The translations under genes were made by a program, and so were the position numbers. From Fibrobacteria bacterium (lineage in GTDB: Bacteria > Fibrobacterota > Fibrobacteria > UBA5070): 64,000 bases of DNA. The stretch lies in NCBI GenBank assembly GCA_020633825.1, contig JACKCV010000002.1:139553-203552 (forward strand), in the 5' to 3' direction. Below the pieces are notes generated by a model. The model did not search any database, was not told the DNA's origin, and saw only the letters and a list, made by a program, of their open reading frames with translations. Shown here one piece after another: positions 12,760 to 31,654 of the stretch. Within the stretch, counting starts at the first letter, position 1. Each line of letters starts with the position of its first letter.

Positions 12760-13308
12760 TCATCGCGGAGGGGGGAAGCGGGCGAGCTTGCGCTGCAGGG
12801 ACCGGCGGTCGATTCCCAGTTCGCGGGCCGCACGGGACACGTTCCCGTCGCAGTCGGCCAGTACGCGGTGGATGTGCTCCCATTCCACGCGATCCAGGGA
12901 GGGCGTCTCGATCCGGATCGATTCCTGCTTTCCCTCGAGGACGGCGGCGATCTGGTTCCCGTCCAGGGGTTTGGTGCGGTAGTCCGATGCGCCCGCGCGG
13001 ACGGCTTCCAGCGCCGAGGCGATGCTGCCGTAGCCGGTGAGGACCACGATGGTCGCGTCGGGCAGGATCTGTCGCAAGGCCGTCACCAGGTCGAGACCGT
13101 TCTCCTGGCCCAGGCGCAGGTCGACCAGGACGTGGTCGGGTGCGTTGCGTTGGGCGTTCTGGATGGCCGCGGCCCGGTTCGAGCATGTCCACACCTCGTA
13201 CCCGCGCCGGCGCATGGAAAGCCCCAGTCGTTCCCGATAGGCGTCCTCGTCGTCGACGATCAGGAGCTTCCCGCGGGGGCCTTCCCCCGGTTGGGCCTGG
13301 GAGGTCAC
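12760..13308 (-). CDS. RegA/ActR/PrrA-family response regulator (REC + Fis-type HTH)
   Basis: GTG start overlapping the kinase stop (GTGA); 'KLLIVDDED', 'DLRLGQENGLDL', C-terminal 'SRAARELGIDRRSLQRKL'; 182 aa. Confidence 0.85.
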   Translation of the reverse strand: MTSQAQPGEGPRGKLLIVDDEDAYRERLGLSMRRRGYEVWTCSNRAAAIQNAQRNAPDHVLVDLRLGQENGLDLVTALRQILPDATIVVLTGYGSIASALEAVRAGASDYRTKPLDGNQIAAVLEGKQESIRIETPSLDRVEWEHIHRVLADCDGNVSRAARELGIDRRSLQRKLARFPPPR

Positions 13309-14585
13309 GACCCCATCTCCGCGTCGGGCACCCGCAGTTCCGCCGTGGTTCCTTCCCCTGGGCGGGAGGTCACCTTCAAGGTTCCTCCGCAACGATCCGC
13401 GAACGTCCGCACCAGGAAAAGCCCCAGACCCATCCCCTTCCCGGGGCCCTTGGTCGACAGGAACGGCTCGCCCAGGCGCGGGAGCAGATCCGGAGGGATC
13501 CCTTCCCCCCTGTCGCGCACGGTGAAGACCGAGTCGTTGGCTTCCCGCCGAAACGACATGTCCACGACTCGACCCTCCGGAGACGCCTCCACGGCGTTCT
13601 TCACCAAGGTGACCAGGGATTGGATCAGAGGGGCTTCCGGAAGCACCATCTGGACATCCCTTTCCAGACGAGGCGGAACCAGGCGGGCGGAAAGCGAGGG
13701 ATGGAGTGCTTCGGAGAGGGCGGCGAGGATCTGGGAGAGGGACGTGCGGACGGGGCCGTCCCCGATTCCCGAAGTGGTGTGGCTGCCCAGGCGATCCAGG
13801 ATGCGTCGGCACCGGTCCACCTCCGATCGGATCAACAAGGCATCGTCGCGCCACTGGTCGGAAGGGGTGTCCGCAGGGAGGGAGGCGAGGTCCGCCGAGG
13901 CCACGGCGATGGTTCCCAACGGGGATGCCAGTTCGTGGGCCACTCCCGCCGCCAACGTGGCCAGGGATGCGAATTGGCGATCTCGCAGGGCCCGATGGCG
14001 CCATTCGCCGAGATCGCGTTCCTGAGATTCGAGGGCATGGCGGAGGTTGGCGACGAAGTAGGCGATGGAAGTTCCGACCAGGGCCAGCGCGGCCAGGTTT
14101 CCGATTCGCTCCAGACGGGGAGCGATGGGCCATGGGGGGGAGGTGGTCTGCACGAGGGCTCCGGCCACCACCAGCAGCAGGAAGAACCACATGTGGGAGC
14201 GGGGAACCAGGACGGCGGCCATCGCCAGGTGGAGAAGGAAGAACAGGGTGAACGGATTGGTGGTGCCCCCCGTGAACCACAGCATTCCCGTGAGGACCAG
14301 GGTGTCGATCCCGAGCAGGCCCGAGATCCAGGACCCCGCATGGATCCCTTCCCGTCGGGAGCGATGGTGCAGGAACATGTTGCTCAGCAAGGTGAAGCCG
14401 AGGAATCCCGACAGGGGGAGCCAGGGAAGATGGATGCCATCCAATTGCGAGGCGAAGGCGCAGGTGCTGGCCTGTCCCGCGAGGGCGGCCCACCGGAGGC
14501 GGAGCAGCCACCGCAAGCCGGGGTGGGCGTTCTCGGCGTTCGTGCCGCCGGGAAAACCGCCGAGGTTCTTCAGTCGGTTCGGCAT
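13305..14585 (-). CDS. RegB/PrrB-family redox-sensing histidine kinase
   Basis: 6-TM N-domain with 'GGTTNPF' (GGxxNPF quinone-site motif); H-box 'AGVAHELASPLGTI'; G-box 'GMGLGLFLVRTF'. Confidence 0.8.
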   Translation of the reverse strand: MPNRLKNLGGFPGGTNAENAHPGLRWLLRLRWAALAGQASTCAFASQLDGIHLPWLPLSGFLGFTLLSNMFLHHRSRREGIHAGSWISGLLGIDTLVLTGMLWFTGGTTNPFTLFFLLHLAMAAVLVPRSHMWFFLLLVVAGALVQTTSPPWPIAPRLERIGNLAALALVGTSIAYFVANLRHALESQERDLGEWRHRALRDRQFASLATLAAGVAHELASPLGTIAVASADLASLPADTPSDQWRDDALLIRSEVDRCRRILDRLGSHTTSGIGDGPVRTSLSQILAALSEALHPSLSARLVPPRLERDVQMVLPEAPLIQSLVTLVKNAVEASPEGRVVDMSFRREANDSVFTVRDRGEGIPPDLLPRLGEPFLSTKGPGKGMGLGLFLVRTFADRCGGTLKVTSRPGEGTTAELRVPDAEMGS

Positions 14586-14670
14586 GGTGCCGCCGGGCGG
14601 AGGGGAACGAGGTGGGGGCCGGTACTCGTGCGAAGTGGCGCGGTGGAGCTGGCGGGCACGGTCGGGAGGA

Positions 14671-15024
14671 TCAGAGGAGGTTGCAGGCCTGCCTGCCGTC
14701 CTGCAGGGTCGGATAGATGGGGATGATGCTCCCGAGGCTCGCGACCTGGAAGACCTCGAGGATGTCCGAGCGGTTTTCCACGAGGAACATCTGCGAGGAT
14801 TTCTTGCGGAACCCCAGGGCGTAATCGATGATCCCCGCCAGGCAACAGCTTCCGAGCAGTTCCAGACCCGTGGTGTCCATGGCCAGGGGCAGGGGTGGTT
14901 CCATCGACATCAAATCGGAGAGGACGGCCCGGAATTGCGCGAGTTGAGGCATCGCGAAATCGGTTCCCTCCAGATGGAGCACCCGGAGATTCGGGAGCGT
15001 TTCAACAGTGAAGAGACAGCCCAT
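14671..15024 (-). CDS. STAS domain protein (anti-sigma-factor antagonist-like)
   Basis: 117-aa SpoIIAA-like pattern, immediately upstream and co-directional with the RegB-like kinase. Confidence 0.45.
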   Translation of the reverse strand: MGCLFTVETLPNLRVLHLEGTDFAMPQLAQFRAVLSDLMSMEPPLPLAMDTTGLELLGSCCLAGIIDYALGFRKKSSQMFLVENRSDILEVFQVASLGSIIPIYPTLQDGRQACNLL

Positions 15025-15098: not shown

Positions 15099-16883
15099 TC
15101 AGGCCAACAGCCCGATCTTGCGGATGGACTCGATGGCGACATCCCTCCGCTCCCCGGTGGACAGGAGGATCGCTTCCAAGGTGGCCGGTTCCCGGCGACG
15201 GTCGACACGAAGCGGGCGCAGCCGCATGGCCCTGCCCGGCGGTGTTTTGAGCACGACCTCGATCTCGTTCTCGGTGAGTGCCGCGTATTCCGCCAATTTC
15301 ATGCAATCGGCGTAATCGAGTTCCCGCAAACCGGTGCCGGCGTAGCGCGAGCTAGATCCGGGGATGGTGCGCGAGACCATCTCCCCGTTGGGCCAGGACC
15401 ATCGATGCTCGCGCAGTTCGGGTTCCGGGGCGGGGGATTTCCACGGGTGGACCGGTGCGCTGCTGGGGTCTTCGGGAGGGAAGTACCCCAGGCTCGAAAG
15501 CAGCCTGCGGATGGTGGGTTCCTGGGTCGGATCGATCAGGAAGCCCCAGTCCGGGATGGTTTCGAGAGTGAGCGAGAGGAACGCGTCGAGCGCGCAGAGT
15601 TGGCGGTGGCGCAGCGGGTCGGCGATGCGCAGGAGCCTGGCGGATTCGAACCTGCACGCGCGACGGGTGGCGAGCCATTCCTCGAGTTGGACGAGGACCG
15701 CGGCCGGAGGCGCCAGATCCTCGAGCAGGGTCGGAATGCGTCCGGCCCAGGATTCGAGGGCGGCGGCGGCCAGCACCTTGTCCCGATCGAGCTTCCATCG
15801 GGAGACCAGGTCGGCGGACTCGCGTTTCCCGAGGAAGGACGCGTCCCGATGATGCCCGAGGGGGGACTGCGGGGCCAGGAAGATCTGCAGATCGGACGTG
15901 CACCACCAGGTGCGTTCCGCTCGTGGATGGATGGAATCGATCCACGGCCACACGAAGACCAGGTCTCCCTGGGCGCACTCCCGTTCGAGGATGCCGACCA
16001 CCAGGGCTTCCCGCAGGAGTCGGGGAAGTTGGGTCCAGCTCCGGCCGGTGGGCCCGGGAACCAGCAGGCCTTCCCGGCGGAAGAACAGGCGTGCGGCGAA
16101 GTCGGCGTCGGCCCCGTCGGGAAGATTGGTGGCGATCCAGTCCTTGATGCCGCCGGTTCGCCGCTCGCGCGACTCCCACCAGCGCAGAGCGAAGTCCGGG
16201 CGATCGTCCAGGGAGGCGAGCCAGGTCGGCAGGTCCGGGGAGGATTCCAGGGCCCCATCCCTTCGCAGCAGGAGACCCTGGTCGGAGAGGAAGTCGAGAG
16301 CCAGGTCGAGGGCCATTTCCTGCGCCCCTTCGCCGAGGTCGGACAGGTGCGAAAAAATTTCGCGCAGAGTCGGTCTGTCGCGACGATTCAGGGAACCGTC
16401 GCGGTTCAGTCGAGCTCCCCCGAGGTCGATGGCGGCGGAGAGCGATGCGATCGATTCGAGGAAGGCGCGCGAGGCGTGGCGTTGTCCCTGGGGCCTCTCG
16501 CGGGGGGGGATGTCGAAGGTCTGCGCGGCGGCCACGACGGTGGGGGTGAGGTCGATCACGGGGTGCCAGGTCGGCGGCTCCTCGCGATCCAGGATGATGA
16601 CAAATTCCGACGCAAGGGTCTCGAGATCCTGCCTGTCCTCGGGAGCGAAGGCCTCGCAGGGGATTCCGCCCTCGCCGGCGAGATGGATGTCGAGCGCGAT
16701 GGCGGCGGTGGACGGGGAGTCGCGCAGGAGCGGTTCGATCCTCTCGCCGGAAACCATCCAGGCCTCGATCTCCAGGTTGATCCTGCTGCGTTGCACCAGG
16801 CCTTCTCTGCCGAGGCGATGGGCGTGGAGGGAAGCGATTTCTCCCTGGGGAACCTGATCGAGAAGCTGACGTACAGATGGCAT
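15099..16883 (-). CDS. Hypothetical protein (594 aa)
   Basis: Minus-strand frame has balanced L/E/D/A composition; the overlapping plus ORF is G/R/P-rich. No recognisable motif. Confidence 0.4.
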   Translation of the reverse strand: MPSVRQLLDQVPQGEIASLHAHRLGREGLVQRSRINLEIEAWMVSGERIEPLLRDSPSTAAIALDIHLAGEGGIPCEAFAPEDRQDLETLASEFVIILDREEPPTWHPVIDLTPTVVAAAQTFDIPPRERPQGQRHASRAFLESIASLSAAIDLGGARLNRDGSLNRRDRPTLREIFSHLSDLGEGAQEMALDLALDFLSDQGLLLRRDGALESSPDLPTWLASLDDRPDFALRWWESRERRTGGIKDWIATNLPDGADADFAARLFFRREGLLVPGPTGRSWTQLPRLLREALVVGILERECAQGDLVFVWPWIDSIHPRAERTWWCTSDLQIFLAPQSPLGHHRDASFLGKRESADLVSRWKLDRDKVLAAAALESWAGRIPTLLEDLAPPAAVLVQLEEWLATRRACRFESARLLRIADPLRHRQLCALDAFLSLTLETIPDWGFLIDPTQEPTIRRLLSSLGYFPPEDPSSAPVHPWKSPAPEPELREHRWSWPNGEMVSRTIPGSSSRYAGTGLRELDYADCMKLAEYAALTENEIEVVLKTPPGRAMRLRPLRVDRRREPATLEAILLSTGERRDVAIESIRKIGLLA

Positions 16884-16931: not shown

Positions 16932-17720
16932 GTGAAAGGACGTTCTGAATGGGTCACGATCCATTGGCAAAGCCCGTTGAAAACCCGCAGTCCGAAGACC
17001 CCCGGGACAACGCCTCCCGAACGGAATCCGACCATGGGGCGGAAGGTTTCCTGGCTCGTGGCGAGGAGGCCTGCGGTCGTGGTGCGTGGGTCGAGGCGCG
17101 GGGGGGGGTGGGGGGGGGGCGCGGGCGCGGAGGGGGGGGGGGGGGGGGCCCGCGACCTGGATCCGTGGGGATGGAAACCCCTCCAGGGGATCGGGATCGC
17201 GCTTTTCTGGTTGGGGAAGAGGGACGATGCCTGGAAGCACCTCGTGGAAGCGTTGCGGAGGGCTCCCGACGAGCCGGACAACGTCGCCAACGTGCTGGAC
17301 GTCGCTCGATCGCTGGGCAGGGAAGCGGAAGCCGAGGCCATCCTCGCCGAACTTCGTCGTTCCCTGCCCGCACCCACCGCGGCTTCGCCTGCCGAGCCCT
17401 TTTGCGTGAAGGGTGAGGAAATGCTCGGTGCCGAGCTCTGGCGGGAGGCCGTGCAACCGTTCCTCCAAGCCATCGACAGCGATCCCGAGCGGTCCCGGGC
17501 CTGGAGCGGGCTGGGCATCGCCTGCTTCCGGGATGGGAAGGCGAAGGCGGCCACGGCCTTCTTCGAAATCGCCCTCCGCCTCGATCCGACGGACCAGGAC
17601 GCCGTCCTCAACTGGGCCGAAGCGTGCGGTCGTCCCGGAGACGACCTCGAATCCTTCCTGGTTTCCGCGGGCGTCTCCCCGGATCTTGCCGCGCGGGCTC
17701 GCGCCGAGGTCTCCGGTTGA
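16932..17720 (+). CDS. TPR-repeat protein (N-terminus uncertain; long poly-G tracts in the 5' part)
   Basis: TPR-like helices 'AWSGLGIACFRDGKAKAATAFFEIALRLDPTDQDAVLNWAEA'; residues before the G tract are low complexity. Confidence 0.5.
   Translation: MKGRSEWVTIHWQSPLKTRSPKTPGTTPPERNPTMGRKVSWLVARRPAVVVRGSRRGGGWGGGAGAEGGGGGARDLDPWGWKPLQGIGIALFWLGKRDDAWKHLVEALRRAPDEPDNVANVLDVARSLGREAEAEAILAELRRSLPAPTAASPAEPFCVKGEEMLGAELWREAVQPFLQAIDSDPERSRAWSGLGIACFRDGKAKAATAFFEIALRLDPTDQDAVLNWAEACGRPGDDLESFLVSAGVSPDLAARARAEVSG
17101..17150. repeat. Homopolymeric G tracts G9-T-G9-C-GCGGGCGCGG-A-G17
   Basis: Read directly from the sequence; within/near the 5' end of the TPR gene. Confidence 0.9.
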
Positions 17721-19042
17721 AGCTGGGAGCACGACCCGCCGCGAAGGACCTCCCTCTTTCGATCTGCCTGATCGTCAAGAACGAGGAGGCGAACCTCCCG
17801 GCGTTGCTGGAATCCCTCGCAGGCCTGGGGGCCGAGTTGATCGTGGTGGATACGGGATCCACCGATCGAACGGTGCAGATCGCCCAGTCCGCGGGGGCGA
17901 AGGTTCGCCATTTCTCCTGGACCGGGGATTTCGCCGCGGCACGGAACGTCTCCCTCGAGGCCGCGACCCGTTCCTGGGTGATGTGGATGGATGCGGACGA
18001 TCGCCTACCCGCCTCCAGTCGGCCGGCGCTTCAGGCCCTGGTGGCGGCCCGACCGGAGAAGGCGTGGGCCTTTCTCGTGAAAAACACCACCAACGGGGGC
18101 GCCACGGGTTCCGAGTTCTCCCAGATCCGCCTGTTTCCCAACCACCCTCGCATCCGATTCACGGGCGCCGTCCACGAGCAGGTGTTCCCGGCTCTGGCCG
18201 CCCTGGGCATTCCCTTCGAGTACTCCACCCTGGTGGTGCACCACACGGGGTACATCGATGCCGATACGGTGCGGGCCAAACAAGTTCGGAACCGGGAAAT
18301 CCTCGAACGGGAGGTGGTGCGCAACGGCGGCCACGCCATCACGCTCTACCAGTTGGGGGCCGCCCACGCCGATCTCGGCAACGCCGTCGAAGCCGAACGA
18401 CGGTTTCGCGAATCCTTGAAGGCGGTGGAGAACGGCGACCCCGACGTCCATCTGAAATCCCTGGTCCCGGCCTACGCGGCGACCTTGTTCACCAAGAAGG
18501 AGGACTGGGCGGGAGCGCGTCGATTGCTCGAGGAATTGCTCGATCCCGACGTTTCCCTGTGGCATCCCAGCCAGATCGCCATTGCCGCGCAGGTCTGGTT
18601 GCGGACCGGTTCCATCGAGGAAGCGGTGGGTTGGTTCGAGAAAGCCTACACGCCCCCGCAGGCGAAGGTGCTCCTGCCGGTGGATCCCAAGGTCGCGTCG
18701 GTGCAGCCCCTGCAGAACCTTGCCGAATATTGGAAGGGAGTGGGGAACGAGCCTCTGGCCACGGAAATCCTGCTGTTGCTGAAATCGGTCCTGGAAAACC
18801 GTTTTCCGCCGCGACGTGCCATCCCCGACGCGTACATGCGCCACGGGCAGGCCTCGCGCGCCGCCGAACTCTACGCCTGGTGCATCGATCGCGACGGGGA
18901 CGACCCCGCCCTGTGGGCCCCCTTGGTCCGAGCCACGGCCATCGCAGGGGATCCCGAGAACGCGGCGCGCTTCCTGGACGCCGGATTGGAGCGATGGCCT
19001 GGGGACGAGGGCCTTCGCGCTCTGGCGCGCGGGGAGTTCTGA
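17717..19042 (+). CDS. GT2-family glycosyltransferase with C-terminal TPR domain
   Basis: 'LSICLIVKNEEANLPALL', 'VVDTGSTDRT', 'WVMWMDADD'; TTG start overlapping the upstream stop (TTGA). ORF track extends to 17624, so the start is uncertain. Confidence 0.7.
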   Translation: MKLGARPAAKDLPLSICLIVKNEEANLPALLESLAGLGAELIVVDTGSTDRTVQIAQSAGAKVRHFSWTGDFAAARNVSLEAATRSWVMWMDADDRLPASSRPALQALVAARPEKAWAFLVKNTTNGGATGSEFSQIRLFPNHPRIRFTGAVHEQVFPALAALGIPFEYSTLVVHHTGYIDADTVRAKQVRNREILEREVVRNGGHAITLYQLGAAHADLGNAVEAERRFRESLKAVENGDPDVHLKSLVPAYAATLFTKKEDWAGARRLLEELLDPDVSLWHPSQIAIAAQVWLRTGSIEEAVGWFEKAYTPPQAKVLLPVDPKVASVQPLQNLAEYWKGVGNEPLATEILLLLKSVLENRFPPRRAIPDAYMRHGQASRAAELYAWCIDRDGDDPALWAPLVRATAIAGDPENAARFLDAGLERWPGDEGLRALARGEF

Positions 19043-19157
19043 ATCGTCCTTCCCCTCCCCGGCCGGGGTGGAGGAAGGTACCCCTCGCCCCCGGCGAGGG
19101 CTGCCGCGCCCAGGTCGAGCCCGGGGCTTGGAAGGCGTTCCCGCGGCGGGACCTCCC

Positions 19158-20630
19158 TCAGTCTCCTTCGACGAGTCGCTCGACCCCGGGCAATCCCCCG
19201 GCCCAGGCGGGAGCTCCCCGGGCGAATCTCCTGACCTCCTCTTCCCTGCCGGCCGCGAGTTCCTTCTCGAGGATGTCCGCGATGCGATGGAACAATTCCT
19301 GGCGCGGGAAGCCTGGATCGATGCGCCAAGGCGCGGCTCCGGAGCGGATGTCCTCCACCAGGCGTGAGGAGGCCTCGTCGACATCCCGGGGGGGATGGTC
19401 CGGTGGGAGGCCGCCGACACGTCGCTTCAGATCGCGGTGACGGAGGATGGACGGGTTGGTTCCGCGTACCGTCCGAGCCAGGAGATTCGAGGCCGATTCG
19501 CGATCTCCCAGGAGGAGGAAGGCGGCCGCCAAGTCGGCGACCGTTTCGGCATCGTCGGAGTTCGCTTTCAGCGCCGATTCCATGGAAGGAAAGGCGGCCT
19601 CGACCTGGCCCATGGCGACGAGAAGGAGAGCCCGCAGCGAGGGAAGGCTCGAGGAGCGGTCCAAGGCCTCTTCCATCCGTCCGAGTCCGAACAGCAGACG
19701 CGCCTCGAGCCGCGCGTCGGGTGCCGCATCGAGCCATTCGAGAGCTCCAACCCTGTTTCCGCGCGCCTCTTCGAGGCGGGCGACGGCGGTCCGGAAGTCG
19801 GAATCCCCCTGGCACTCCTCCTCGAATTCCCGCGCGCATTCGAGGGCAGCACCCAACTCGCCGTTCGCCCACAGGTCCAGACTCGCTCCCGCCACGGCCC
19901 GCGGCCACCAGGGCCATTGCCGCCGGAGGGAGGTGCCGCGTCGCCGCGCGTCCTCGATGCAGGCCGTCCACGCCTGGGACGTCTCCCATTCGAGGAGTGG
20001 ATCGAAGAGCCCCTCCAAGGTGACGGCGAGCTTGAACAGGTCGTAGGCGTCGGAGGCGCCGCGGTCCCTGCTGGATCGAAGAATGCGAAGGTTCCGCTCC
20101 AGCTTCCCCCGGGAGGCGACCACATCGTCCTGGTAGCCGTGGTGGATCAGGCGAAGGTCGAGGGGGGATGGGGCCGGGAGGGAGGATTCGGCCAGCGCAT
20201 CCAGGATGGTCTCGTGCAGGGCGTGCGTGTAGCGCAGCCGTGGGTCGCGGCGAAACAGGCGGGGTTGCCGGACGACCTCGATCCCCCCACCCCCCCGGAG
20301 TTCGACTTCGACCAGGTGGCAGACCGCCGGACCGGCTCCCAGGCTCTCCAATGCCGAGCGCCGGGGAGGGCACAGCTCCTCGTCGGCGTCGATCTGGAGG
20401 ATCCATTCCCCGCGGGCCATCTCCAGGCAGGCGTTGCGCGCCCGGCTGAAATCGTCCATCCATTCGACCGACCCGATCCGGGCCCCGTGGGAGCGGGCGA
20501 TCTCGAGGGTCCGGTCCTTCGATCCGGTGTCGAGCAGGCAGATCTCGTCGACGATCCCGTGGAGGGAGGCGAGGCAACGGTCGAGGAATCGTTCCTCGTC
20601 GCGGACGATCAGGCAGGCGGAGATGGTCAT
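19158..20630 (-). CDS. GT2-family glycosyltransferase with C-terminal TPR domain (paralog, convergent)
   Basis: ATG at 20630; 'MTISACLIVRDEERFL', 'LLDTGSKDRT', 'ILQIDADEEL'; 490 aa. Confidence 0.8.
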   Translation of the reverse strand: MTISACLIVRDEERFLDRCLASLHGIVDEICLLDTGSKDRTLEIARSHGARIGSVEWMDDFSRARNACLEMARGEWILQIDADEELCPPRRSALESLGAGPAVCHLVEVELRGGGGIEVVRQPRLFRRDPRLRYTHALHETILDALAESSLPAPSPLDLRLIHHGYQDDVVASRGKLERNLRILRSSRDRGASDAYDLFKLAVTLEGLFDPLLEWETSQAWTACIEDARRRGTSLRRQWPWWPRAVAGASLDLWANGELGAALECAREFEEECQGDSDFRTAVARLEEARGNRVGALEWLDAAPDARLEARLLFGLGRMEEALDRSSSLPSLRALLLVAMGQVEAAFPSMESALKANSDDAETVADLAAAFLLLGDRESASNLLARTVRGTNPSILRHRDLKRRVGGLPPDHPPRDVDEASSRLVEDIRSGAAPWRIDPGFPRQELFHRIADILEKELAAGREEEVRRFARGAPAWAGGLPGVERLVEGD

Positions 20631-20770
20631 GCCCGGGAATCCTAGTTCCCGACGCGGGTCCTCCCCAAACGCAAAGGACCGCCCTCCCGTGGAAGGGAGA
20701 GCGGCCCTATCGTCGGGACGACCTCCGGACCGGGTCTCGAGCCCCGGTGCCGGAGGGCGAGCCAGCGCGA

Positions 20771-21595
20771 CTACCTCAGAAGACTCATGACGCCTTGCGG
20801 GAGCTGGTTGGCCTGGGCCAGCATGCTCTGGGCGGAATTGGTCAGGATCTGGTTGCGAGTGAACTTCGTGGTTTCCGTGGCGAAGTCCGTGTCGCGGATC
20901 CGACTTTCGGCGTCCGTCATGTTCGTGATCGAAACACCAAGGTTCGAGACGGTCTTTTCGAGCCGGTTCATCGCCGCACCCACATCGGAGCGCATGGAAA
21001 GAACGGACGTGAGAGCCGTATCGATGCTGTTGATCGCCGACTGCGCCGCCGACTGCGTACTGACCGCGCCGAGGCTGAGATCGCCGGCAAGGTTGGTCGC
21101 AAGGGAGAAGCTGATGGTCGAAGAACTGGCCGCGTTGCCCGACGAACCGGCGGCGGACACCTGGAAGGAGAAGGTCGACGTGGTCGACAGCAGATCCACA
21201 CCGTTGTAGGTGGTGGACTGTGCGATCCGCGTGATTTCCGACTTCAGTGCCGTGAATTCCGCCTGGATGTAGGAGCGGTCGGTATTGGTGTAGGTTCCGT
21301 TGGAGGATTGGATCGCCAGCTCGCGCATGCGTTGCAGGGAGTTGGTGATTTCCTGGGTCCCGGATTCCGCGATCTGGAGCATGGCCAGGGAGTCGTTCGA
21401 ATTTCGCTGGGCCGTCTGGCTGCCGCGGATCTGCGAACGCAGGCCCTCGGAGACGGAAAGACCGGCGGCATCGTCGGCGGCTCTGTTGATGCGAAGGCCC
21501 GTGGAAAGCTTCTCCAGGGACTTCGACATGGCCATGTTCGTCGTCGCGAGCGAATTCTGGGCATTCGTCGCGTTGACGTTGTTGTAGATGCGCAT
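20771..21595 (-). CDS. fliC: Flagellin (274 aa)
   Basis: N-terminus 'MRIYNNVNATNAQNSL...LSTGLRINRAADDAAGLSVSEGLRSQI'; C-terminus 'LAQANQLPQGVMSLLR'; GGAGG RBS. Confidence 0.92.
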   Translation of the reverse strand: MRIYNNVNATNAQNSLATTNMAMSKSLEKLSTGLRINRAADDAAGLSVSEGLRSQIRGSQTAQRNSNDSLAMLQIAESGTQEITNSLQRMRELAIQSSNGTYTNTDRSYIQAEFTALKSEITRIAQSTTYNGVDLLSTTSTFSFQVSAAGSSGNAASSSTISFSLATNLAGDLSLGAVSTQSAAQSAINSIDTALTSVLSMRSDVGAAMNRLEKTVSNLGVSITNMTDAESRIRDTDFATETTKFTRNQILTNSAQSMLAQANQLPQGVMSLLR

Positions 21596-21700
21596 GATGC
21601 ACCTCCATGTGGTCGTTCAAGACAGGACAGCGTCCTTGCCGTCCATCCCGGATCCCTCCGGACGCCCGCCTCGCGGTTGGAGACCGGAGTTCCCCTCATA

Positions 21701-21730
21701 CTTATCGGATGAATCATTCTTGCGTTTTAG
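21701..21730 (-). promoter_or_regulatory. Sigma-28 (FliA)-like promoter TAAAACGC-N12-TCCGATAA upstream of flagellin 1
   Basis: Minus-strand reading 'CTAAAACGCAAGAATGATTCATCCGATAAG', ~105-135 nt upstream of the ATG. Confidence 0.5.
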
Positions 21731-21836
21731 CCTTTATTCATCGGCATTCGCGAGTCGGCTAGACAGAAAACGACAAAGACCGCGCAGCCCGAAGGCGGCG
21801 CGGTCCCGAGTGCCTGGAAGGCTCTTCAGGGGGTCA

Positions 21837-22661
21837 TCAACGCAGCAGGCTCATGACGCCCTGCGGGAGCTGGTTGGCCTGGGACAACATGCTCTGCGCG
21901 GAGTTGGTCAAGATCTGATTGCGGGTGAACTTCGTGCTCTCCATCGCGAAGTCGGTGTCGCGGATGCGGCTTTCCGCGTCGGTCATGTTGGTGATGGCCA
22001 CGCCGAGGTTCGAGACGGTCTTCTCCAGGCGGTTCATGGCGGCACCCACGTCCGACCGCATCGAAAGCACCGAGGTCAGGGCCGTGTCGATGCTGGTGAT
22101 GGCCGTCTGCGCCGCCGACTGGGTGCTGACCGCACCGAGGGAGAGGTCTCCCGCGAGATTGGTTGCCAGGGAGAAGCTGATCGTCGAGGAGCTCGCCGAG
22201 GCTCCGGCGGATCCGGCCGCGGAGACCTGGAAGGAGAAGGTCGAGGTGGTGGAGAGCAGATCGACGTTATTGTAGGTCGTGCTCTGGGCGATGCGGGTGA
22301 TTTCCGACTTCAAGGCCGTGTATTCGGCCTGGATGTAGGAACGGTCCGTGTTGGTGTAGGTGCCGTTGGAGGACTGGATGGCCAATTCCCGCATGCGCTG
22401 CAGGGAGTTGGTGATCTCCTGGGTTCCGGATTCCGCGATCTGGAGCATGGCGAGAGCGTCGTTGGAATTCCGCTGGGCCGTCTGGCTGCCGCGGATCTGC
22501 GAACGCAGACCTTCGGAGACCGACAGACCGGCGGCATCGTCGGCGGCTCTGTTGATGCGTAGACCGGTGGAAAGCTTCTCCAGGGACTTCGACATGGCCA
22601 CGTTGGCGGTGGCGAGCGAGTTCTGGGTTCCAATGGCGTTGACGTTGTTGTAAATGCGCAT
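21837..22661 (-). CDS. fliC: Flagellin (274 aa; ~95% identical to copy 1)
   Basis: 'MRIYNNVNAIGTQNSL...'; start picked inside ORF 21837..23042; GGAGG RBS. Confidence 0.92.
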   Translation of the reverse strand: MRIYNNVNAIGTQNSLATANVAMSKSLEKLSTGLRINRAADDAAGLSVSEGLRSQIRGSQTAQRNSNDALAMLQIAESGTQEITNSLQRMRELAIQSSNGTYTNTDRSYIQAEYTALKSEITRIAQSTTYNNVDLLSTTSTFSFQVSAAGSAGASASSSTISFSLATNLAGDLSLGAVSTQSAAQTAITSIDTALTSVLSMRSDVGAAMNRLEKTVSNLGVAITNMTDAESRIRDTDFAMESTKFTRNQILTNSAQSMLSQANQLPQGVMSLLR

Positions 22662-22783
22662 GATGTCCAACCTCCGTGTCGGGCGTATGCAGGTGACGAC
22701 GCTTCCGGGAGAGGCTCCCGGAAGTTCCCTTCTTCGGTGGTTTCCTCCATCCTTGGAGGTCCCTTCCGACTCTTCTTCCATTC

Positions 22784-22810
22784 TTTCGGCGATTTGGCGG
22801 CGCGACTTGA
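22784..22810 (-). promoter_or_regulatory. Weak sigma-28-like promoter TCAAGTCG-N12-GCCGAAAG upstream of flagellin 2
   Basis: Minus-strand reading of 'ctttcggcgatttggcggcgcgacttga'; partial match to consensus. Confidence 0.3.
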
Positions 22811-23076
22811 GGGTTTTTTGGCGATCCAGGGGGGAAGGACGGAGCGATGCCGCCTCCCTGCGGTCCTGGGGAGGGAGGCGTCTCCGCGCCGCCGAGGAGG
22901 GGCAACCGCGCCGCGGAGGCGTCTTCGGGGGAATGCGTAGCTCCCGACCGATCGGTCGATCCCGGGGGGGGGCGGGGCGTTCGGCCAGAAAGGCCAAAGC
23001 CCGCCCCGGTAGATCCGGGACGGGCTCGAGGGATCTCCCCAAGGGAGGAGGGAGGAGAGGGGAGACCCCGTTTCGA

Positions 23077-23883
23077 TCACTTCAAGAGGGACATCACGTT
23101 GTTGGGCAGCTGGTTGGCCTGGGCCAGCATGCTGGTGGCCGACTGGTTGAGAATCTGGTTGCGCGTGAACTGGGTGGACTCGGTGGCGAAGTCCGTGTCG
23201 CGGATGCGGCTTTCCGCGTCGGCGTAGTTGGTGATCATCACGCCCAGGTTGTTCACCGTCTTCTCCAGCCGATTCATGGTGGAGCCGATGGTGGAGCGCA
23301 GCGACAGCACCGAGGTCAGGGCCGTGTCGATGGTGGAGATCGCGGCTTGGGCCAGGCTCTGGCCGGAAACCGCACCCAGGGTGAGTCCGGTCAGGTCCAC
23401 GGCGGTGAAGGAGATGGTCGAGGAGTTCCCCGATCCGGCCGAGGAGACCTGGAAGGAGAACGGAGTGGAACCGGCCAGCAACTGCACGTCGTTGTAGGTG
23501 ACGGACTGCGCGATGCGGGTGATTTCGGAGGCGAGCGCGTCGTATTCGGCCTGGATGTACTGGCGCTCGTGGTTGGTGTAGGTTCCGTTGGCCGATTGGA
23601 TGGCCAGTTCCCGCATGCGCTGCAGGGAGTTGGTGATCTCCTGCGTTCCACCTTCGGCGATCTGCAGCATCGCCAGCGCATCGTTGGAGTTGCGGCGGGC
23701 CATGTCGGAGCCGCGGATCTGCGAACGCAGCCCTTCGGACACGGACAGGCCGGCGGCGTCGTCGGCGGCGCGGTTGATGCGAAGTCCGGTGGACAACTTC
23801 TCCAGGCTCTTGGACATCAGGCGGTTGGATGTCATCAGCGAGTTCTGGGTGTTGATGGAGTCGACGTTGTTATAGATGCGCAT
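23077..23883 (-). CDS. fliC: Flagellin (268 aa; diverged third copy)
   Basis: 'MRIYNNVDSINTQNSLMTSNRLMSKSLEKLSTGLRINRAADDAAGL...NNVMSLLK'; start picked inside ORF 23077..23991. Confidence 0.9.
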   Translation of the reverse strand: MRIYNNVDSINTQNSLMTSNRLMSKSLEKLSTGLRINRAADDAAGLSVSEGLRSQIRGSDMARRNSNDALAMLQIAEGGTQEITNSLQRMRELAIQSANGTYTNHERQYIQAEYDALASEITRIAQSVTYNDVQLLAGSTPFSFQVSSAGSGNSSTISFTAVDLTGLTLGAVSGQSLAQAAISTIDTALTSVLSLRSTIGSTMNRLEKTVNNLGVMITNYADAESRIRDTDFATESTQFTRNQILNQSATSMLAQANQLPNNVMSLLK

Positions 23884-24047: not shown

Positions 24048-25145
24048 CTACATCACGACCAGTTCGGCCTGGAGGGCGCCGGACTTCTGGATGGCCTCGA
24101 GGATCGCGATCAAGTCGCGGGGCGAGGCTCCCAGGGTGTTGAGGGCGCGGGCGAGTTCGCCCACGTTGGTGGAGGCGGGGAGGACGCGGACCTGGTCCTG
24201 GCGTTCCTCCGTCTGGATGGAAGGGGTGGCGGTGGTCCGGGTCGTGCCGGCCGCGAAGGCGTTGGGTTGGCTGGTCTGGTAGCCCGGGTCGACCTTGATG
24301 GTCAAGGATCCGTGGGTGACGGCGACCTCGTCGATGAGGACGTCCGATCCGGCGACGATGGTGCCGGTGCGTTCGTTGACCACGATCCGGGCGGGCCGGT
24401 CCATCTCCACCCGGAGGTTTTCCAGCTTGGCGATCAGGGAGGCCCGGCCTTCCTTGGGTTCCTTGCCCGTGAACCGGACGCTCGCCGCATCTTCCGCGAT
24501 CGCGCTCCCCTTGCCGAAGGCGGTTTCGATGGAGGTGGCCAATGCGGAGGCGACCGTGAAGTCCGGGCTGCGCAGCGAAAGTCGGAGCGGTCCGTCGTCG
24601 AGACGGACGGCGAGGTTCTCCCGTTGGACGATGGCGCCGGCGGGGATGACGCCCGTGGCGGATTGTCCTTGCGAGATGCTGGCTCCGGCGAGTCCCCTCT
24701 CGATCCCGCCCGCGGTGCCCAGCGGACCTTGGGCGACGGCGTAGAGTTCGCCATCCGGCCCCTTGAGCGGAGCCATCAGGAGGACGCCGCCGGTGAGGGA
24801 GCGTGCGTCGCCCATGGAGGAGACGTGGACGTCCACGCGCCCACCGGGTTTGGCGAAGGGAGGAAGGTCGGCCGTCACCAGGACCGCCGCGACATTGCGA
24901 AGCCGGATCTGGTTGCGGTCCACTTCCAGGCCCATGTTGCGCAAGAGGTTCAAGGTGGAGCGCTGGGTCACTCCCGATCCGGGGCCGTCCCCCGTACCGG
25001 CCAGTCCGACGACGAGTCCGTAGCCGAGGAGAGGCGTGCGGGAGACGCCCTGGACATCGGCCATGTCCTTGACCCTGACCTGCTGGCTCTGGACGGAAAC
25101 CGTCAGCAGCAGCACGGCGAACGGGATGTGGAACGCGGCGCGCAT
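24048..25145 (-). CDS. flgI: Flagellar P-ring protein FlgI
   Basis: Signal peptide then 'VKDMADVQGVSRTPLLGYGLVVGLAGTGD'; 365 aa; ATG overlaps the flgH stop (TGATG). Confidence 0.9.
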   Translation of the reverse strand: MRAAFHIPFAVLLLTVSVQSQQVRVKDMADVQGVSRTPLLGYGLVVGLAGTGDGPGSGVTQRSTLNLLRNMGLEVDRNQIRLRNVAAVLVTADLPPFAKPGGRVDVHVSSMGDARSLTGGVLLMAPLKGPDGELYAVAQGPLGTAGGIERGLAGASISQGQSATGVIPAGAIVQRENLAVRLDDGPLRLSLRSPDFTVASALATSIETAFGKGSAIAEDAASVRFTGKEPKEGRASLIAKLENLRVEMDRPARIVVNERTGTIVAGSDVLIDEVAVTHGSLTIKVDPGYQTSQPNAFAAGTTRTTATPSIQTEERQDQVRVLPASTNVGELARALNTLGASPRDLIAILEAIQKSGALQAELVVM

Positions 25146-25717
25146 CAGAAGATCCAGTCCAGGAAGCGGGCGATCGGCCCCTTGCGCGCGGCCTCGGAGT
25201 CGGCGCCCCGTCCCGAGTAGGTCACCTTGGCGTCGGCCAGACGGCCGGATCTCACGGTGTTTTCGGCGGAGATGTCCTCGGGGCGCAGCAATCCGGCGAC
25301 GGTGAGGATCTCGGTCTCGTCGTTGATCACGACCTGCTTGGTCCCTTCGACCCGGAGGGTTCCGTTGGGAAGGACTTCGATCACCCTCGCGCTGACCACG
25401 GCCTGCATGCTGCCTGCGCGGGAGGTGTTTCCAAGCCCCTTGAAATCGGCGTCCAGGGCGGACTTGGCGGAGGCGTCGGGGAGGAATCCCAGGATCCCGG
25501 ATCCCGCCTGCATTCCCACCGATCCCTTGGAGCTGCTCTGGGTGTTGGTCTGGGCGGCGTTGCGGGCGGTGTTGTCCTCCTCGACGAGGACCGTGACCAC
25601 GTCGTCCACGCGCCGGCTGCGGTGGTCGCTGGTGAGCGAGAAGTCGGAAGGAAGCCTCTCCGCCGCCGAAGCGACGGAAAGTGTCATGAGCGCTGCGATC
25701 GCGGATGGGATCTTCAT
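25145..25717 (-). CDS. flgH: Flagellar L-ring protein FlgH
   Basis: 190 aa with signal peptide; 'VTVLVEEDNTARNAAQTNTQ...' and position upstream of flgI. Confidence 0.8.
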   Translation of the reverse strand: MKIPSAIAALMTLSVASAAERLPSDFSLTSDHRSRRVDDVVTVLVEEDNTARNAAQTNTQSSSKGSVGMQAGSGILGFLPDASAKSALDADFKGLGNTSRAGSMQAVVSARVIEVLPNGTLRVEGTKQVVINDETEILTVAGLLRPEDISAENTVRSGRLADAKVTYSGRGADSEAARKGPIARFLDWIF

Positions 25718-27034: not shown

Positions 27035-27880
27035 CTAGATCCGGTCCAGCGCGTCCTGGACCGCACCCCTCCATGGATCCCCGAACAGCACGAGGTGGTT
27101 CAGGAGGTGGAGGAGATTGTAGAGCGGAATCCGTTCGGTCCAGCGCGGATCGAGGTCGTGGGTGCGTGTGGCGGTGCGGAGGAAGCGCGGGGGAATCCCA
27201 CCGAAGAGCGCGGTCATGGCCAGGTCGGCTTCCTGCCAGCCGTAGTGGGTGGCGGGATCGATGAGACAAGGGGCGCCCTGTTCATCGCAGAGGATGTTCC
27301 CCGACCAGAGGTCTCCGTGGATCAGGACGGCGGGGCTGGAGGGGACGCGCTCCCGGAGGGAATCGGTCACTTTCTCGACCTTCCGCAAGGTTTCCTTGTC
27401 GAGGAGTCCGCGGTCGAAGGCCGCGGCGGCCAGGGGTCTCAATCGTCTTCCTGCGAAGAAGGCCCATCCATCGTCCGACCAGCGATTGTCCAGTTCGGTG
27501 GAGCCCAGCCAGGTGGGACCGTGGAACCCGAAGGCCGGGCCGCGGACCGAATGCAGGACGGCCAGCTGCTCGGCCAGGCGATCCCAGAACTCCGGGGACG
27601 GTTCGGTGCGGTGGATCCATTCCAGGACCAGCAGTCCAGGTTCGCAGTGGAGCACTTCGGGAATGCGAGGGGCGCCCGGGATGCGCAGAGCGGCCAAGGC
27701 GAGGGATTCCGCTTCGCTGGAATCATCCCCGACCGTCGGGGAGGGCTGTTTCGCCACGGCTTGCTGCCCATCCTGCCAGAGGATGTGGTGCACGCGGGCA
27801 CCGGCATCGTTGGCGATGGATCTGGTTTCGGGAGTCCCGCTTCGGTAGTTTCGGAGCCCTTGGACAAGGGATGGGGCCAT
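27035..27880 (-). CDS. Fructosamine-kinase-family / aminoglycoside-phosphotransferase-fold protein kinase
   Basis: 'LIHGDLWSGNIL' catalytic loop; 'PLYNLLHLLNHLVLFG' typical of the FN3K family. Confidence 0.8.
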   Translation of the reverse strand: MAPSLVQGLRNYRSGTPETRSIANDAGARVHHILWQDGQQAVAKQPSPTVGDDSSEAESLALAALRIPGAPRIPEVLHCEPGLLVLEWIHRTEPSPEFWDRLAEQLAVLHSVRGPAFGFHGPTWLGSTELDNRWSDDGWAFFAGRRLRPLAAAAFDRGLLDKETLRKVEKVTDSLRERVPSSPAVLIHGDLWSGNILCDEQGAPCLIDPATHYGWQEADLAMTALFGGIPPRFLRTATRTHDLDPRWTERIPLYNLLHLLNHLVLFGDPWRGAVQDALDRI

Positions 27881-30818: not shown

Positions 30819-31654
30819 GCTTTCCTCCCGGGATCGTTGGAGCGCGACCGGGGGAAGAACTGCAGGGAGAGCTGCATCACGCGGTCGGGGGATCGGTCCT
30901 CCTTGAGCAGACGGAAGACCTCTTCCCGGAAACTGTCGATCTTGTCGCGGATCTGGCGCTGGGTGGACTCGGAGACCGTGAGAAGGATGGAGGAGATGTG
31001 CCTCTGGTCCGGGCGGAACCTGCCGATCGCTTCCCCGGCATGGTCGATCCAGGTCCGGTTCAGGTTCCTGACGAGTTCCCCGAGGTGGGGGGGCGGTTCG
31101 ACGAAGGTGTCCACGACTTCCCGGCCCCTGTGGGGATCGTCGCGGACGAGGCCCCATTGGACGAGGTCCTGGATCATCTTCGACACCTGGTGGGGAGGCA
31201 GCGGCGGATCGAGGAACGCGCCGACCTCGGCCGGTTCGCTGCGCGAGGGGAGGCATTGGAGGGCCGCTCGCAACAAGGGGTAGCGATAGTCCTGGTAGTA
31301 CCTGGAGTGGGCGGGATTCATGCGGGTGAACGTGGAACGGTTCCTGCGGGTCAGAATTTGTCTGTAGCAGTCCTCGCGCTCCGACAGGGATCGGGTCTGG
31401 CCGAACCGGACCAGGAGACGGAAGTATTCCGCCTCCTTGGGACGCAGCCCGAATCCGGCGATCATCTTCTCCATGGCGACCTGGGAAAGCTTGCGCCTCC
31501 CCTTGATCACGTCCCCGAGGAACCCGGGGTTGGTGAGTCCGGCATCGCGCGCGAAGGCCCTGGTGCTGTACCTGCGGTTCCTCGAGAGCTTCTCCTCCCA
31601 CAGGTGCGCCAGAAGCTTGCGGAAGTCGTCATGTTCGTAGATGTCCAGCGCCAT
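30815..31654 (-). CDS. TIGR02147-like protein (Fibrobacter-type paralogous family, putative HTH)
   Basis: 'YEHDDFRKLLAHLWEEKLSRNRRYSTRAFARDAGLTNPGFLGDVIKGRRKLS...YFRLLVRFGQT' resembles the TIGR02147 N-terminal signature (from memory). Confidence 0.5.
   Translation of the reverse strand: MALDIYEHDDFRKLLAHLWEEKLSRNRRYSTRAFARDAGLTNPGFLGDVIKGRRKLSQVAMEKMIAGFGLRPKEAEYFRLLVRFGQTRSLSEREDCYRQILTRRNRSTFTRMNPAHSRYYQDYRYPLLRAALQCLPSRSEPAEVGAFLDPPLPPHQVSKMIQDLVQWGLVRDDPHRGREVVDTFVEPPPHLGELVRNLNRTWIDHAGEAIGRFRPDQRHISSILLTVSESTQRQIRDKIDSFREEVFRLLKEDRSPDRVMQLSLQFFPRSRSNDPGRKA

Follow-up and report, generated by a model that had tools for sequence, protein, structure and literature searches.

A candidate GmaR-type flagellin glycosyltransferase gene behind three tandem flagellin genes in an uncultured Fibrobacteria bacterium, and a second transferase of uncertain role

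Do glycosyltransferases that are encoded next to flagellin genes modify the flagellar filament? This question is raised by a MAG of an uncultured Fibrobacteria bacterium, of which we analysed a stretch of 64 kb (the window). It contains genuine genes for three short flagellins (268–274 aa) and for two soluble GT2+TPR glycosyltransferases, GT-A and GT-B, for which a sequence-only reading had proposed a joint role in flagellin O-glycosylation. The genes are arranged in the order flgH-flgI-fla3-fla2-fla1-GT-B, then follows the convergent GT-A, which itself lies after a gene for a TPR-only protein. The transferase genes indeed converge as had been claimed, with a GC-rich, strongly folding spacer of 115 nt between their stop codons (19043..19157; several hairpins, MFE -63.5 kcal/mol). 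However, the flagellin genes are not enclosed by them: both transferase genes are found to one side, and the other side is occupied by the P-ring gene flgI (24048–25145, minus strand; FlgI E 1.4e-117) and the L-ring gene flgH (25145–25717, minus strand; FlgH E 2.3e-45), which are located directly upstream of the flagellins and show the same placement relative to them in the loci L001 and L003. The sole glycosyltransferase gene that abuts a flagellin gene is GT-B, with a gap of 140 nt to fla1. With a probability of roughly 0.65, we read the locus as a flagellar filament island (flgH-flgI-fla3-fla2-fla1) followed by the gene for a GmaR-type flagellin glycosyltransferase, GT-B. The proposed glycosylation module thus appears to stand for GT-B, on the basis of GmaR homology, ThuS/SunS fold and flagellin synteny, but the case is weaker for GT-A.

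The three flagellin genes are arranged in tandem on the minus strand, and each product contains Flagellin_N and Flagellin_C (Pfam), in agreement with the sequence-only reading. Fla1 (20771–21595, 274 aa; Flagellin_N E 1.3e-39, Flagellin_C E 1.1e-25) is encoded directly upstream of GT-B; Fla2 (21837–22661, 274 aa) shares 94% aa identity with it, and Fla3 (23077–23883, 268 aa; Flagellin_N E 1.3e-38, Flagellin_C E 6.5e-27), a D0/D1-only flagellin, is 78% identical to Fla1. The short Ser/Thr-rich central segments that had been described are likewise present: they comprise 44–50 residues with 34–40% Ser+Thr, compared to 21–24% in the rest of the protein (40% in Fla1, 'LLSTTSTFSFQVSAAGSSGNAASSSTISFS...', and 40% in Fla2; the Ser/Thr-rich segment of Fla3 is 44 aa long). 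When the orthologous flagellins of L001, L003 and L004 are included, the central segments contain 30–50% Ser+Thr vs 19–24% elsewhere. Such Ser/Thr richness is widespread among flagellins and hence a non-specific sign of glycosylation. Cys is absent from the flagellins of the window, so that an S-linkage is excluded. About 108 nt upstream of fla1 a motif scan found a sigma-28-like promoter motif, TAAA-N16-TCCGATAA (21703..21729, minus strand), which is the single match to TAAA-N14-17-CCGA[TA]A in the 64-kb window with both strands scanned; judged by the known sigma-28 consensus, the site probably functions as a promoter.

GT-B (19158–20630, minus strand, 490 aa), the candidate flagellin O-glycosyltransferase, is built from an N-terminal GT2 domain of the GT-A fold (a fold, not the gene of that name; Pfam Glycos_transf_2, residues 4–89), helical TPR-like repeats (TPR_19, residues 337–388) and a conserved C-terminal helical extension. 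GT-A (17717–19042, plus strand, 441 aa, start TTG) matches Glycos_transf_2 (residues 15–105) and TPR_14/16/19, which confirms the presence of two GT2+TPR genes. Calling them paralogs is correct for the GT domain of about 200 aa (38% identity, E 1e-36), but the C-terminal halves fail to align, and the two proteins fall into separate ortholog groups. Invariant across both groups are the motifs DTGSxD, DFxxARN, DAD(E/D), HE, H(H/T)GY and KxxRN (in GT-B DTGSxD / DFxxARN / DADE / HE / HHGY). No TM segments were found in either protein. Searching the PDB with phmmer, we obtained the GT domain of GmaR (22ao) as the best solved-structure sequence match for both enzymes, with E 1.6e-26 for GT-B (36.5% identity over 181 positions) and E 9.9e-24 for GT-A, for which SunS follows with E 5e-15. 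The AF2 model of GT-B (pLDDT 91, pTM 0.85) shows a GT-A fold and then all-helical repeats (residues 195–476); in Foldseek it matches ThuS and SunS best, with 360–425 columns covering both domains and E 9e-15 to 1e-13 (for ThuS, 7msk, E 8.7e-15 and 373–425 columns; the SunS matches are 7msn and 7msp).

The link between flagellin and GT-B is conserved across Fibrobacterota. The order of flagellin(s) followed by GT-B is kept in L001, L003, L004, L091 and L093 while other neighbours differ, and a flagellin is found directly upstream on the same strand in 11 of the 15 informative GT-B-like metagenome loci (an adjacent flagellin is missing in the other 4 and in a 477-aa subgroup, L092). Between fla1 and GT-B, a terminator scan revealed a hairpin resembling an intrinsic terminator (20665..20708, minus strand; 14 pairs, 10 of them GC, with a T-rich tail). 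All nine loci examined have a GC hairpin with T tract separating the last flagellin gene from the GT-B-like gene, with only about 20 nt left between terminator and GT start in L004 and L091. Read-through of this conserved terminator past the last flagellin gene might keep the expression of GT-B low compared with that of flagellin; the terminator could instead signal that GT-B is transcribed independently.

Given a GmaR-related enzyme beside three flagellin genes, the filament is probably sugar-coated. For acceptor, donor and timing we infer the following route. GT-B would be a soluble cytoplasmic enzyme whose N-terminal GT-A-fold domain with its DxD motif uses a housekeeping UDP-sugar, most likely UDP-GlcNAc (as GmaR) or UDP-Glc (as SunS/ThuS), a choice suggested by analogy and not readable from the sequence. 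Its C-terminal TPR-like superhelix would recognise the protein substrate, and the enzyme would O-glycosylate the flagellins before their export via the flagellar type III system, at Ser/Thr of the short central segment exposed at the surface. A housekeeping donor would also explain the absence of an adjacent dedicated sugar pathway. The earlier statement that the window holds no sugar-biosynthesis genes is nearly right: there are none near the locus, and a Pfam sweep of the window detected no pse/leg/neu genes, but a single SDR gene for an NAD-dependent epimerase/dehydratase (GDP_Man_Dehyd/Epimerase, Pfam) is located at 57466–58422, 34 kb from the locus.

GT-A, which belongs to the same superfamily as GT-B, is encoded in a separately conserved block. 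It is called likewise with 441 aa in independent assemblies and forms the second gene of a pair with the TPR-only gene (~16949–17720, plus strand; TPR_16, TPR_2, TPR_19; about 228 aa in orthologs), which had escaped the sequence-only reading and whose stop TGA overlaps the TTG start of GT-A, indicating translational coupling. Orthologs of the TPR-only gene precede GT-A in L001, L003, L088 and L089, and the conserved block consists of a gene for a protein of about 590 aa, the TPR-only gene and GT-A. Linkage of GT-A to flagellin was observed in the clade of the window only; in L088 and L089 the block is more than 10 kb away from any flagellin, and in the genome of L089 (GCA_016715065.1) a flagellin-GT-B-like locus is found on a different contig. 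The flagellin role of GT-A is uncertain: in the clade of the window it may perform a second flagellin modification, or glycosylate a different protein. That GT-A and GT-B form one flagellin glycosylation module, as originally suggested, is thinkable as a minority view, be it that they work one after the other, with a first sugar added and then extended, or that they divide flagellins or sites among them, with the TPR-only protein as an adaptor of GT-A. Both enzymes are GmaR-like, the convergent pair beside three flagellins is kept in the clade (window, L001 and L003), and many contigs that, judged by their length, are common to both enzymes occur in the two match lists. Moreover, deeper Fibrobacterota carry a convergent GT4 gene at the position of GT-A after the GT-B-like gene, which suggests that the locus usually includes a second transferase, and both modules are found in GCA_016715065.1, which shows that the GT-A block and flagella can occur together. 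Precedents exist in the sequential action of GT1 and GT2 on C. difficile flagellin (PMC5207246) and in the adaptor-dependent flagellin transferases Maf-2/GlfM (cited in PMC13317340). However, in L088 and L089 the conserved unit of GT-A stands apart from flagellin, GT-A and GT-B have unrelated C-terminal halves, and GT-A is encoded on the strand opposite to the flagellins and thus not co-transcribed with them.

Could the neighbourhood of transferases and flagellins be mere coincidence, the GT2-TPR proteins acting on some other protein or on a cell-envelope polymer? GT2 is a very broad family, and Bac_transf and GT4 genes are present in the contexts of the GT-A block (L088–L090). In the wider family, 80 genome loci from a broad range of phyla include 22 with a flagellin encoded within 6–10 kb of a homologous GT domain, and 63 further metagenome loci include 20, where about 1–2% would be expected by chance (a rough estimate, not computed); a flagellin is not nearby in about 70% of the distant homologous loci, so that family membership alone leaves the acceptor unfixed. 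Nevertheless, we consider coincidence unlikely: GT-B keeps its flagellin adjacency while all other neighbours change, the similarity of GT-B to GmaR and SunS (E 1e-26 to 1e-12) is far above that to polysaccharide GT2 enzymes (chondroitin synthase, E 2e-3), and both proteins are soluble with TPR domains, which are typical of protein-substrate recognition.

If the locus encodes a GmaR-type flagellin transferase, GT-B might also share the second activity of GmaR, its extra C-terminal helices (~405–490) regulating flagellar genes as an anti-repressor. GmaR unites GT domain, TPRs and a C-terminal antirepressor domain, and the conserved C-terminal extension is common to the GT-B orthologs and missing from GT-A. 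We nonetheless judge such bifunctionality to be very improbable, as the PDB sequence search at E<=0.01 recovered no GmaR chain other than the 204-aa GT domain, GT-B falls 147 aa short of the length of GmaR, and the Pfam sweep found no MogR-like gene in the window.

Phase variation had been suggested from a C6-A-C7 tract in GT-B (G7TG6 on the coding strand), which encodes Gly-Gly-Gly-Gly in a loop of the catalytic domain. The tract exists; with its 14 nt it covers 20283–20296 on the minus strand and ends one base before the position 20297 assigned to it. Its proposed variability is unsupported: the MAG and three independent assemblies show the same tract, the encoded loop is not conserved in GT-B orthologs, and the tract is unexceptional, since the window contains 20 G/C runs at least 7 long, this one included. 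Another tract, G9-T-G10 ... G17 (17100..17148, plus strand), lies within the 5' part of the TPR-only gene, whose frame, as assembled, is disrupted across this G-rich insert. It is absent from orthologs, and the Logan contigs L005 and L006 both break off precisely there, the end of L005 reading AAGGCCCGCG vs GGGGCCCGCG in the window; tract and frame disruption may be an assembly artefact. Only with a slim chance is it a true hypermutable switch in an adaptor-dependent second GmaR-type transferase (TPR-only protein plus GT-A) recruited to the flagellin locus. In that case a free-living environmental bacterium would carry a phase-variable second glycoform on its flagellin or on some other surface protein, and the locus would encode a two-enzyme, tripartite GT2-type flagellin glycosylation system analogous to Maf-2/GlfM with an unrelated fold. 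Least probable of all is a glycocin-type system in which the transferases act on a small secreted bacteriocin peptide: TIGR04195 (SunS family) is the best NCBIfam match and ThuS and SunS are the best fold matches, but the TIGR04195 scores (50.7 bits for GT-A, 65.4 bits for GT-B) stay far below the cutoff of 350 bits, the sequences are closer to GmaR, and the window genes include no precursor peptide, ABC transporter/peptidase or thiol-disulfide oxidoreductase.

How does the locus compare with known systems? The resemblance to FlmG or Maf put forward by the sequence-only reading points to the wrong families. FlmG (Caulobacter) and Maf (Campylobacter, Aeromonas, Shewanella), both flagellin nonulosonic-acid transferases, are alike in being cytoplasmic, flagellin-specific glycosyltransferases that recognise flagellin by means of a TPR module or else of a separate adaptor (PMC7591256; PMC13317340). 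However, their catalytic domains are unrelated and the domain order is opposite: FlmG has N-terminal TPRs and then a C-terminal GT-B fold, whereas here a GT2 domain of GT-A fold precedes the TPRs, and neither transferase shows a Pfam match to MAF_flag10/DUF115. FlmG and Maf also require CMP-Pse/Leg biosynthesis genes, and no genes for CMP-nonulosonic acids occur in the window. Compared by gene order, C. difficile is similar: the flagellin GlcNAc transferase gene CD0240/GT1 lies immediately downstream of fliC and a second GT extends the glycan (PMC5207246), so that the order of fliC and initiating GT plus a second GT is shared. In Clostridium FGIs, GT2+TPR genes beside flagellin already serve to predict flagellin GTs (PMC13317340), although clostridial islands usually hold sugar-modification genes and the present locus does not have any. 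The glycocin S-(and O-)glycosyltransferases SunS and ThuS (PDB 7msn, 7msp, 7msk) share with the GT-B model the combination of a GT-A domain and a helical, TPR-like C-terminal domain for substrate binding, and with its proposed activity the transfer from a UDP-hexose onto a ribosomally made polypeptide. They differ in their low identity (about 20%, with TIGR04195 scores far under the cutoff), in the glycocin gene cluster, which the window lacks, and in the likely acceptor here, a flagellin without Cys.

The closest system is GmaR (Lmo0688) of Listeria monocytogenes, a bifunctional flagellin O-GlcNAc transferase and MogR anti-repressor. Its substrate is a short (287 aa) flagellin of D0/D1 type that is modified on central Ser/Thr. 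As in GT-A and GT-B, an N-terminal GT2/GT-A domain is directly followed by TPRs, so that the order of GT before TPR pointed out earlier matches that of GmaR exactly; GmaR is also soluble, cytoplasmic and encoded in a flagellar gene cluster, and it needs no dedicated sugar pathway because UDP-GlcNAc is used. On the other hand, GmaR is longer (637 aa vs 441 aa for GT-A and 490 aa for GT-B), and the PDB sequence search detected no homolog of its C-terminal MogR-binding antirepressor domain (residues 351–637) in GT-A or GT-B. The host of the window is a diderm Fibrobacterota and not a Firmicute, and two distinct enzymes of GmaR type lie side by side. Taken together, while the second transferase may not belong to it, GT-B with its flagellins would represent a known kind of system, the GT(1-180)-TPR-antirepressor protein GmaR that transfers GlcNAc to flagellin (PMC9638930; PMC3150276), in a new lineage, the Fibrobacterota.

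The flagellin region of the window (GC ~65%) starts on the plus strand with a gene encoding tetratricopeptide repeats only (TPR-only, about 16949/17034-17720; ~228 aa in orthologs), whose TGA stop codon is overlapped by the TTG start of the glycosyltransferase gene GT-A (17717-19042, 441 aa). Facing GT-A across a GC-rich spacer of 115 nt is a second glycosyltransferase gene, GT-B (19158-20630, 490 aa). It is located on the minus strand, as are the flagellin genes Fla1 (20771-21595, 274 aa), Fla2 (21837-22661, 274 aa) and Fla3 (23077-23883, 268 aa), the P-ring protein gene flgI (24048-25145) and the L-ring protein gene flgH (25145-25717). Both glycosyltransferases (GTs) match Glycos_transf_2 and TPR families in Pfam, all three flagellins Flagellin_N and Flagellin_C. 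Since GT-A and GT-B converge across the spacer, both are located to the same side of the flagellins and GT-B alone abuts a flagellin; they do not flank the array, as an earlier, sequence-only reading had it. Where the window has just the 115-nt spacer, a relative carries a 113-aa ORF without Pfam match (L001, 11506-11847; L002, 2140-2481). A gene of the fructosamine kinase family (27035-27880, minus strand, E 2.3e-47), also present in the related contig L003, is located ~1.3 kb beyond flgH; the closeness of this protein-deglycation type of enzyme to a putative protein-glycosylation locus is probably coincidental. A DUF4423 gene (30815-31654, minus strand) occurs ~7 kb from Fla3 and turns up again, at a distance of a few kb, beside the flagellin/GT-B-like locus of distant Fibrobacterota (L004, 14114-14956; L091, 10110-10952; L093, 11842-12744). 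Further away, a very large plus-strand ORF (38841-44951, 2036 aa) with a weak PA14 match as its sole domain probably encodes a surface or adhesin-like protein.

The full order flgH-flgI-three flagellins-GT-B, followed by convergent GT-A, TPR-only, a ~600-aa protein and a STAS protein, is kept in the related metagenome contigs L001 and L003. In more distant Fibrobacterota (L004, the complete genome CP064986.1; L091, from GCA_016715065.1; L093) a single flagellin is followed after 70-80 nt by a GT-B-like gene of 515-519 aa, while the remaining neighbours differ from those in the window (T2SS/pilus, SpoU and HU upstream; a convergent GT4 downstream). Scanning metagenomes with the GT-B ortholog alignment, we found 17 full-length relatives; for 15 of them the contig extends 300 nt or more upstream, and in 11 of these 15 loci the gene immediately upstream, in the same orientation, encodes a flagellin. 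Outside the Fibrobacterota, 22 of the 80 genome loci among the matches listed, all of them distant relatives, have a flagellin no more than 10 kb away from a homologous GT domain (the close orthologs came from a protein-to-contig look-up and the metagenome scan). These 22 loci come from many phyla, including Sulfobacillus, Desulfacinum, Acidimicrobiia, Caldilineae, Gemmatimonadota, Neomarinimicrobiota and Deferribacteres. Another 20 of 63 metagenome loci have a flagellin within 6 kb. As a window of 20 kb makes up ~0.5% of a 4-Mb genome, we put the chance expectation at the order of 1-2% (our own estimate, not a computed value), and the link between GT-B and flagellin exceeds it. Taken together, we favour GT-B as a flagellin O-glycosyltransferase resembling GmaR, the flagellin O-GlcNAc transferase and antirepressor of Listeria, but lacking the antirepressor module, and give this reading a probability of roughly 0.65.

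That GT-A and GT-B jointly form a two-enzyme module for flagellin glycosylation, as had been proposed, seems rather unlikely to us. The two proteins are 38% identical across ~204 residues of the catalytic domain (E 1e-36), and DTGSxD, DFxxARN, DAD(E/D), HE, H(H/T)GY and KxxRN are invariant in a joint alignment of both ortholog groups; their description as paralogs thus holds for this domain, but not for the C-terminal halves, which could not be aligned. Both proteins lack hydrophobic segments that could span a membrane. In Fibrobacterota metagenomes the orthologs form separate series, of 494-521 aa and 38-54% identity for GT-B and of 420-457 aa and 44-70% identity for GT-A. The two are ancient relatives in one superfamily and not the result of a recent duplication. 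In two contigs with GT-A orthologs of 54-58% identity (L088, L089), the gene of a ~590-aa protein is divergent to TPR-only and GT-A, and no flagellin is found within 10 kb of this block. L089 and L091 are different contigs of one MAG (GCA_016715065.1), so that this organism has a flagellin-GT-B-like-GT4 locus and, elsewhere, a GT-A block; only in the window's own clade, therefore, is GT-A located beside flagellins. The module is supported as far as GT-B with its conserved flagellin linkage is concerned, whereas GT-A is tied to flagellin only loosely and is probably a protein-directed enzyme of the GmaR/SunS type that co-occurs with flagella. In the deeper Fibrobacterota, the GT4 (Glycos_transf_1, 540-550 aa) convergent to the GT-B-like gene (L004, 11556-13190; L091, 7566-9191; L093, 7584-9236) occupies the exact position of GT-A in the window, and the comparison suggests a second transferase as a recurrent, interchangeable partner at the flagellin/GT-B locus.

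A second alternative, a glycocin system, draws on the similarity of both GTs to the glycocin glycosyltransferases SunS and ThuS. Their top PDB sequence match is the GT domain of GmaR (22ao; E 1.6e-26 with 36.5% identity over 181 aligned positions for GT-B, E 9.9e-24 for GT-A), followed by the glycocin S-glycosyltransferases (ThuS-like 7msk, SunS 7msn/7msp). The AlphaFold2 model of GT-B, based on 39 orthologs (pLDDT 91, pTM 0.85), has a GT-A fold (the fold class, not the gene) at residues 1-190 and helical repeats up to residue 476. In a Foldseek search of the PDB the top matches were ThuS and SunS, which cover both domains (E 9e-15 to 1e-13, 360-425 columns), with TarS/TarP-type GT2 enzymes next and more than 7 orders of magnitude weaker. 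The SunS family is also the top NCBIfam model for the GTs, but with 51-65 bits they score far below its cutoff of 350 bits, and together with the gene context this led us to reject a glycocin system. The flagellins contain no cysteine, which excludes an S-linkage as in glycocins. FlmG (TPR followed by a GT-B fold) and Maf (MAF_flag10), which the sequence-only reading had offered for comparison, are different families and are excluded by domain content and order. A literature search on the GT-domain structure of GmaR and on TPR details of SunS/ThuS yielded nothing usable.

The flagellins of the window consist of D0/D1 only, with a segment of 44-50 residues between the N- and C-terminal helical domains that follows the pattern 'FSFQVS-(S/G/A-rich loop)-SSTISF...'. 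Ser and Thr make up 34-40% of this segment versus 21-24% elsewhere, confirming the short Ser/Thr-rich central segments noticed before in all three flagellins; those of L001, L003 and L004 have a like bias (30-50% versus 19-24%). Because Ser/Thr richness is common among flagellins, we regard the bias as only permissive for glycosylation. In a Pfam sweep of ~45 ORFs across the whole 64-kb window, the neighbourhood of the locus showed no genes of a nucleotide-sugar pathway. The claim that the window is free of sugar-biosynthesis genes therefore applies to the surroundings of the locus, with one exception at a distance: an SDR epimerase/dehydratase (57466-58422, plus strand; GDP_Man_Dehyd, E 1.6e-49), the sole gene of nucleotide-sugar type in the window, is located 34 kb from the flagellins, directly after a gene of the DHDPS family (DapA/N-acetylneuraminate-lyase-like; 56513-57472, plus strand). 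The gene content fits a housekeeping donor, which by analogy could be UDP-GlcNAc (as for GmaR) or UDP-Glc (as for SunS/ThuS).

Between Fla1 and GT-B we found a GC-rich hairpin of 14 bp with a T-rich tail (20708-20665, minus strand). All nine loci that were folded have an equivalent hairpin and T tract in the interval from the last flagellin to the GT-B-like gene; in L004 and L091 it is only ~20 nt away from the start codon of the GT. In the simplest reading, part of the transcription from the flagellin promoter would run on into GT-B, so that flagellin would be made in large and the enzyme in small amounts. The sole sigma-28-type motif in the window, TAAA-N16-TCCGATAA (21703-21729, minus strand), precedes Fla1 by ~108 nt; before Fla2 the motif is degenerate (CGCCGAAAG at 22783-22790), and before Fla3 no such motif is apparent. 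As the motif is intact only before Fla1, the three flagellins may, going by these sequences, be regulated differently.

Within GT-B, a C6-A-C7 tract (20283-20296) had been considered for phase variation. It encodes four glycines in a loop of the GT domain that is non-conserved and one residue longer in orthologs (GSAGRS, GSNGRS, GDEGRS etc.), and it is one of a common type of run at 65% GC (20 G or C runs of at least 7 in the window). The tract is unchanged in L005-L007, three independent assemblies that stem from different sequencing runs and have 0-2 mismatches to the window across 2.6-4.3 kb, a comparison at assembly level, with minor variants excludable by read-level data only. We thus see no evidence for a contingency switch, and phase variation at this tract seems unlikely. 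As a whole, the sequence-only reading is partly supported.

A G-rich tract, G9-T-G10...G17 (17100-17148), is located in the 5' part of the TPR-only gene (16949-17720, plus strand). Orthologs have 'WVEAKAFFEKARELDP' at this site and no G runs. The ATG at 16949 is in frame with the conserved N-terminal coding part, 'GFLARGEEACGRGAWVEAR', but not with the rest, 'ARDLDPWGWKPLQG...', so that the gene is disrupted as assembled; a change of -1 or +2 nt would bring both parts into one frame. The tract is also the exact end point of two independent Logan contigs, one of them with the ortholog-like end AAGGCCCGCG ('...EKARDLDP'; AAGG) versus GGGGCCCGCG (GGGG) in the window. Either poly-G misassembly of the MAG or a truly unstable, hypervariable tract heading the TPR-only-GT-A operon may account for this.

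Divergent to this operon in the window, L001, L003, L088 and L089 is the gene of a protein (594 aa in the window; 15099-16883, minus strand) that matches neither Pfam families nor PDB sequences. Just 14 close orthologs were found, and one ortholog has a weak Helicase_C_3 match. Its medium-confidence AlphaFold2 model (pLDDT 77) weakly resembles (TM-scores <0.3) TFIIH p52-like winged-helix repeats and, in the C-terminal domain, WYL-domain regulators. Judged by this model, the protein may bind nucleic acids and possibly regulate the divergent operon; we did not accept it as part of a glycosylation machine. Adjoining its gene are those of a STAS-domain protein, a histidine kinase and a response regulator with HTH_8 (12760-15024, minus strand); STAS is syntenic in L001 and L003, the kinase/regulator pair in L003.

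To our knowledge, proof that GT2+TPR enzymes glycosylate flagellin exists for a few Firmicutes only, e.g. for Listeria GmaR; elsewhere such a role is predicted from gene order. GT2+TPR proteins encoded beside flagellin genes are an established type of flagellin glycosyltransferase, with GmaR as the experimental example; for Fibrobacterota we found no literature on flagellin glycosylation. Across uncultured Fibrobacterota the order of flagellin and GmaR-like GT is kept, as is the terminator that separates them, and a homologous GT domain occurs near flagellin in ~30% of the sampled loci of many other phyla. This suggests that short flagellins receive a simple sugar decoration, made without a dedicated sugar pathway, far more widely than one would expect from the pathogens studied; Fla1 and GT-B are compact candidates for heterologous reconstitution. 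In a 2026 survey of Clostridium, flagellin GTs were predicted by the criterion 'GT2 domains with TPR repeats' (PMC13317340). In C. difficile, fliC is followed by an initiating and then an extending GT (PMC5207246), similar to the arrangement of flagellin and GTs in the window. GmaR, which transfers GlcNAc onto flagellin, is built of a GT domain (about residues 1-180), TPR, linker and antirepressor (PMC9638930; PMC3150276); the order of GT before TPR, thought odd in the sequence-only reading, is thus exactly that of GmaR, whereas GT-B has no antirepressor module. The locus is an incremental extension of this known system and involves no new mechanism.
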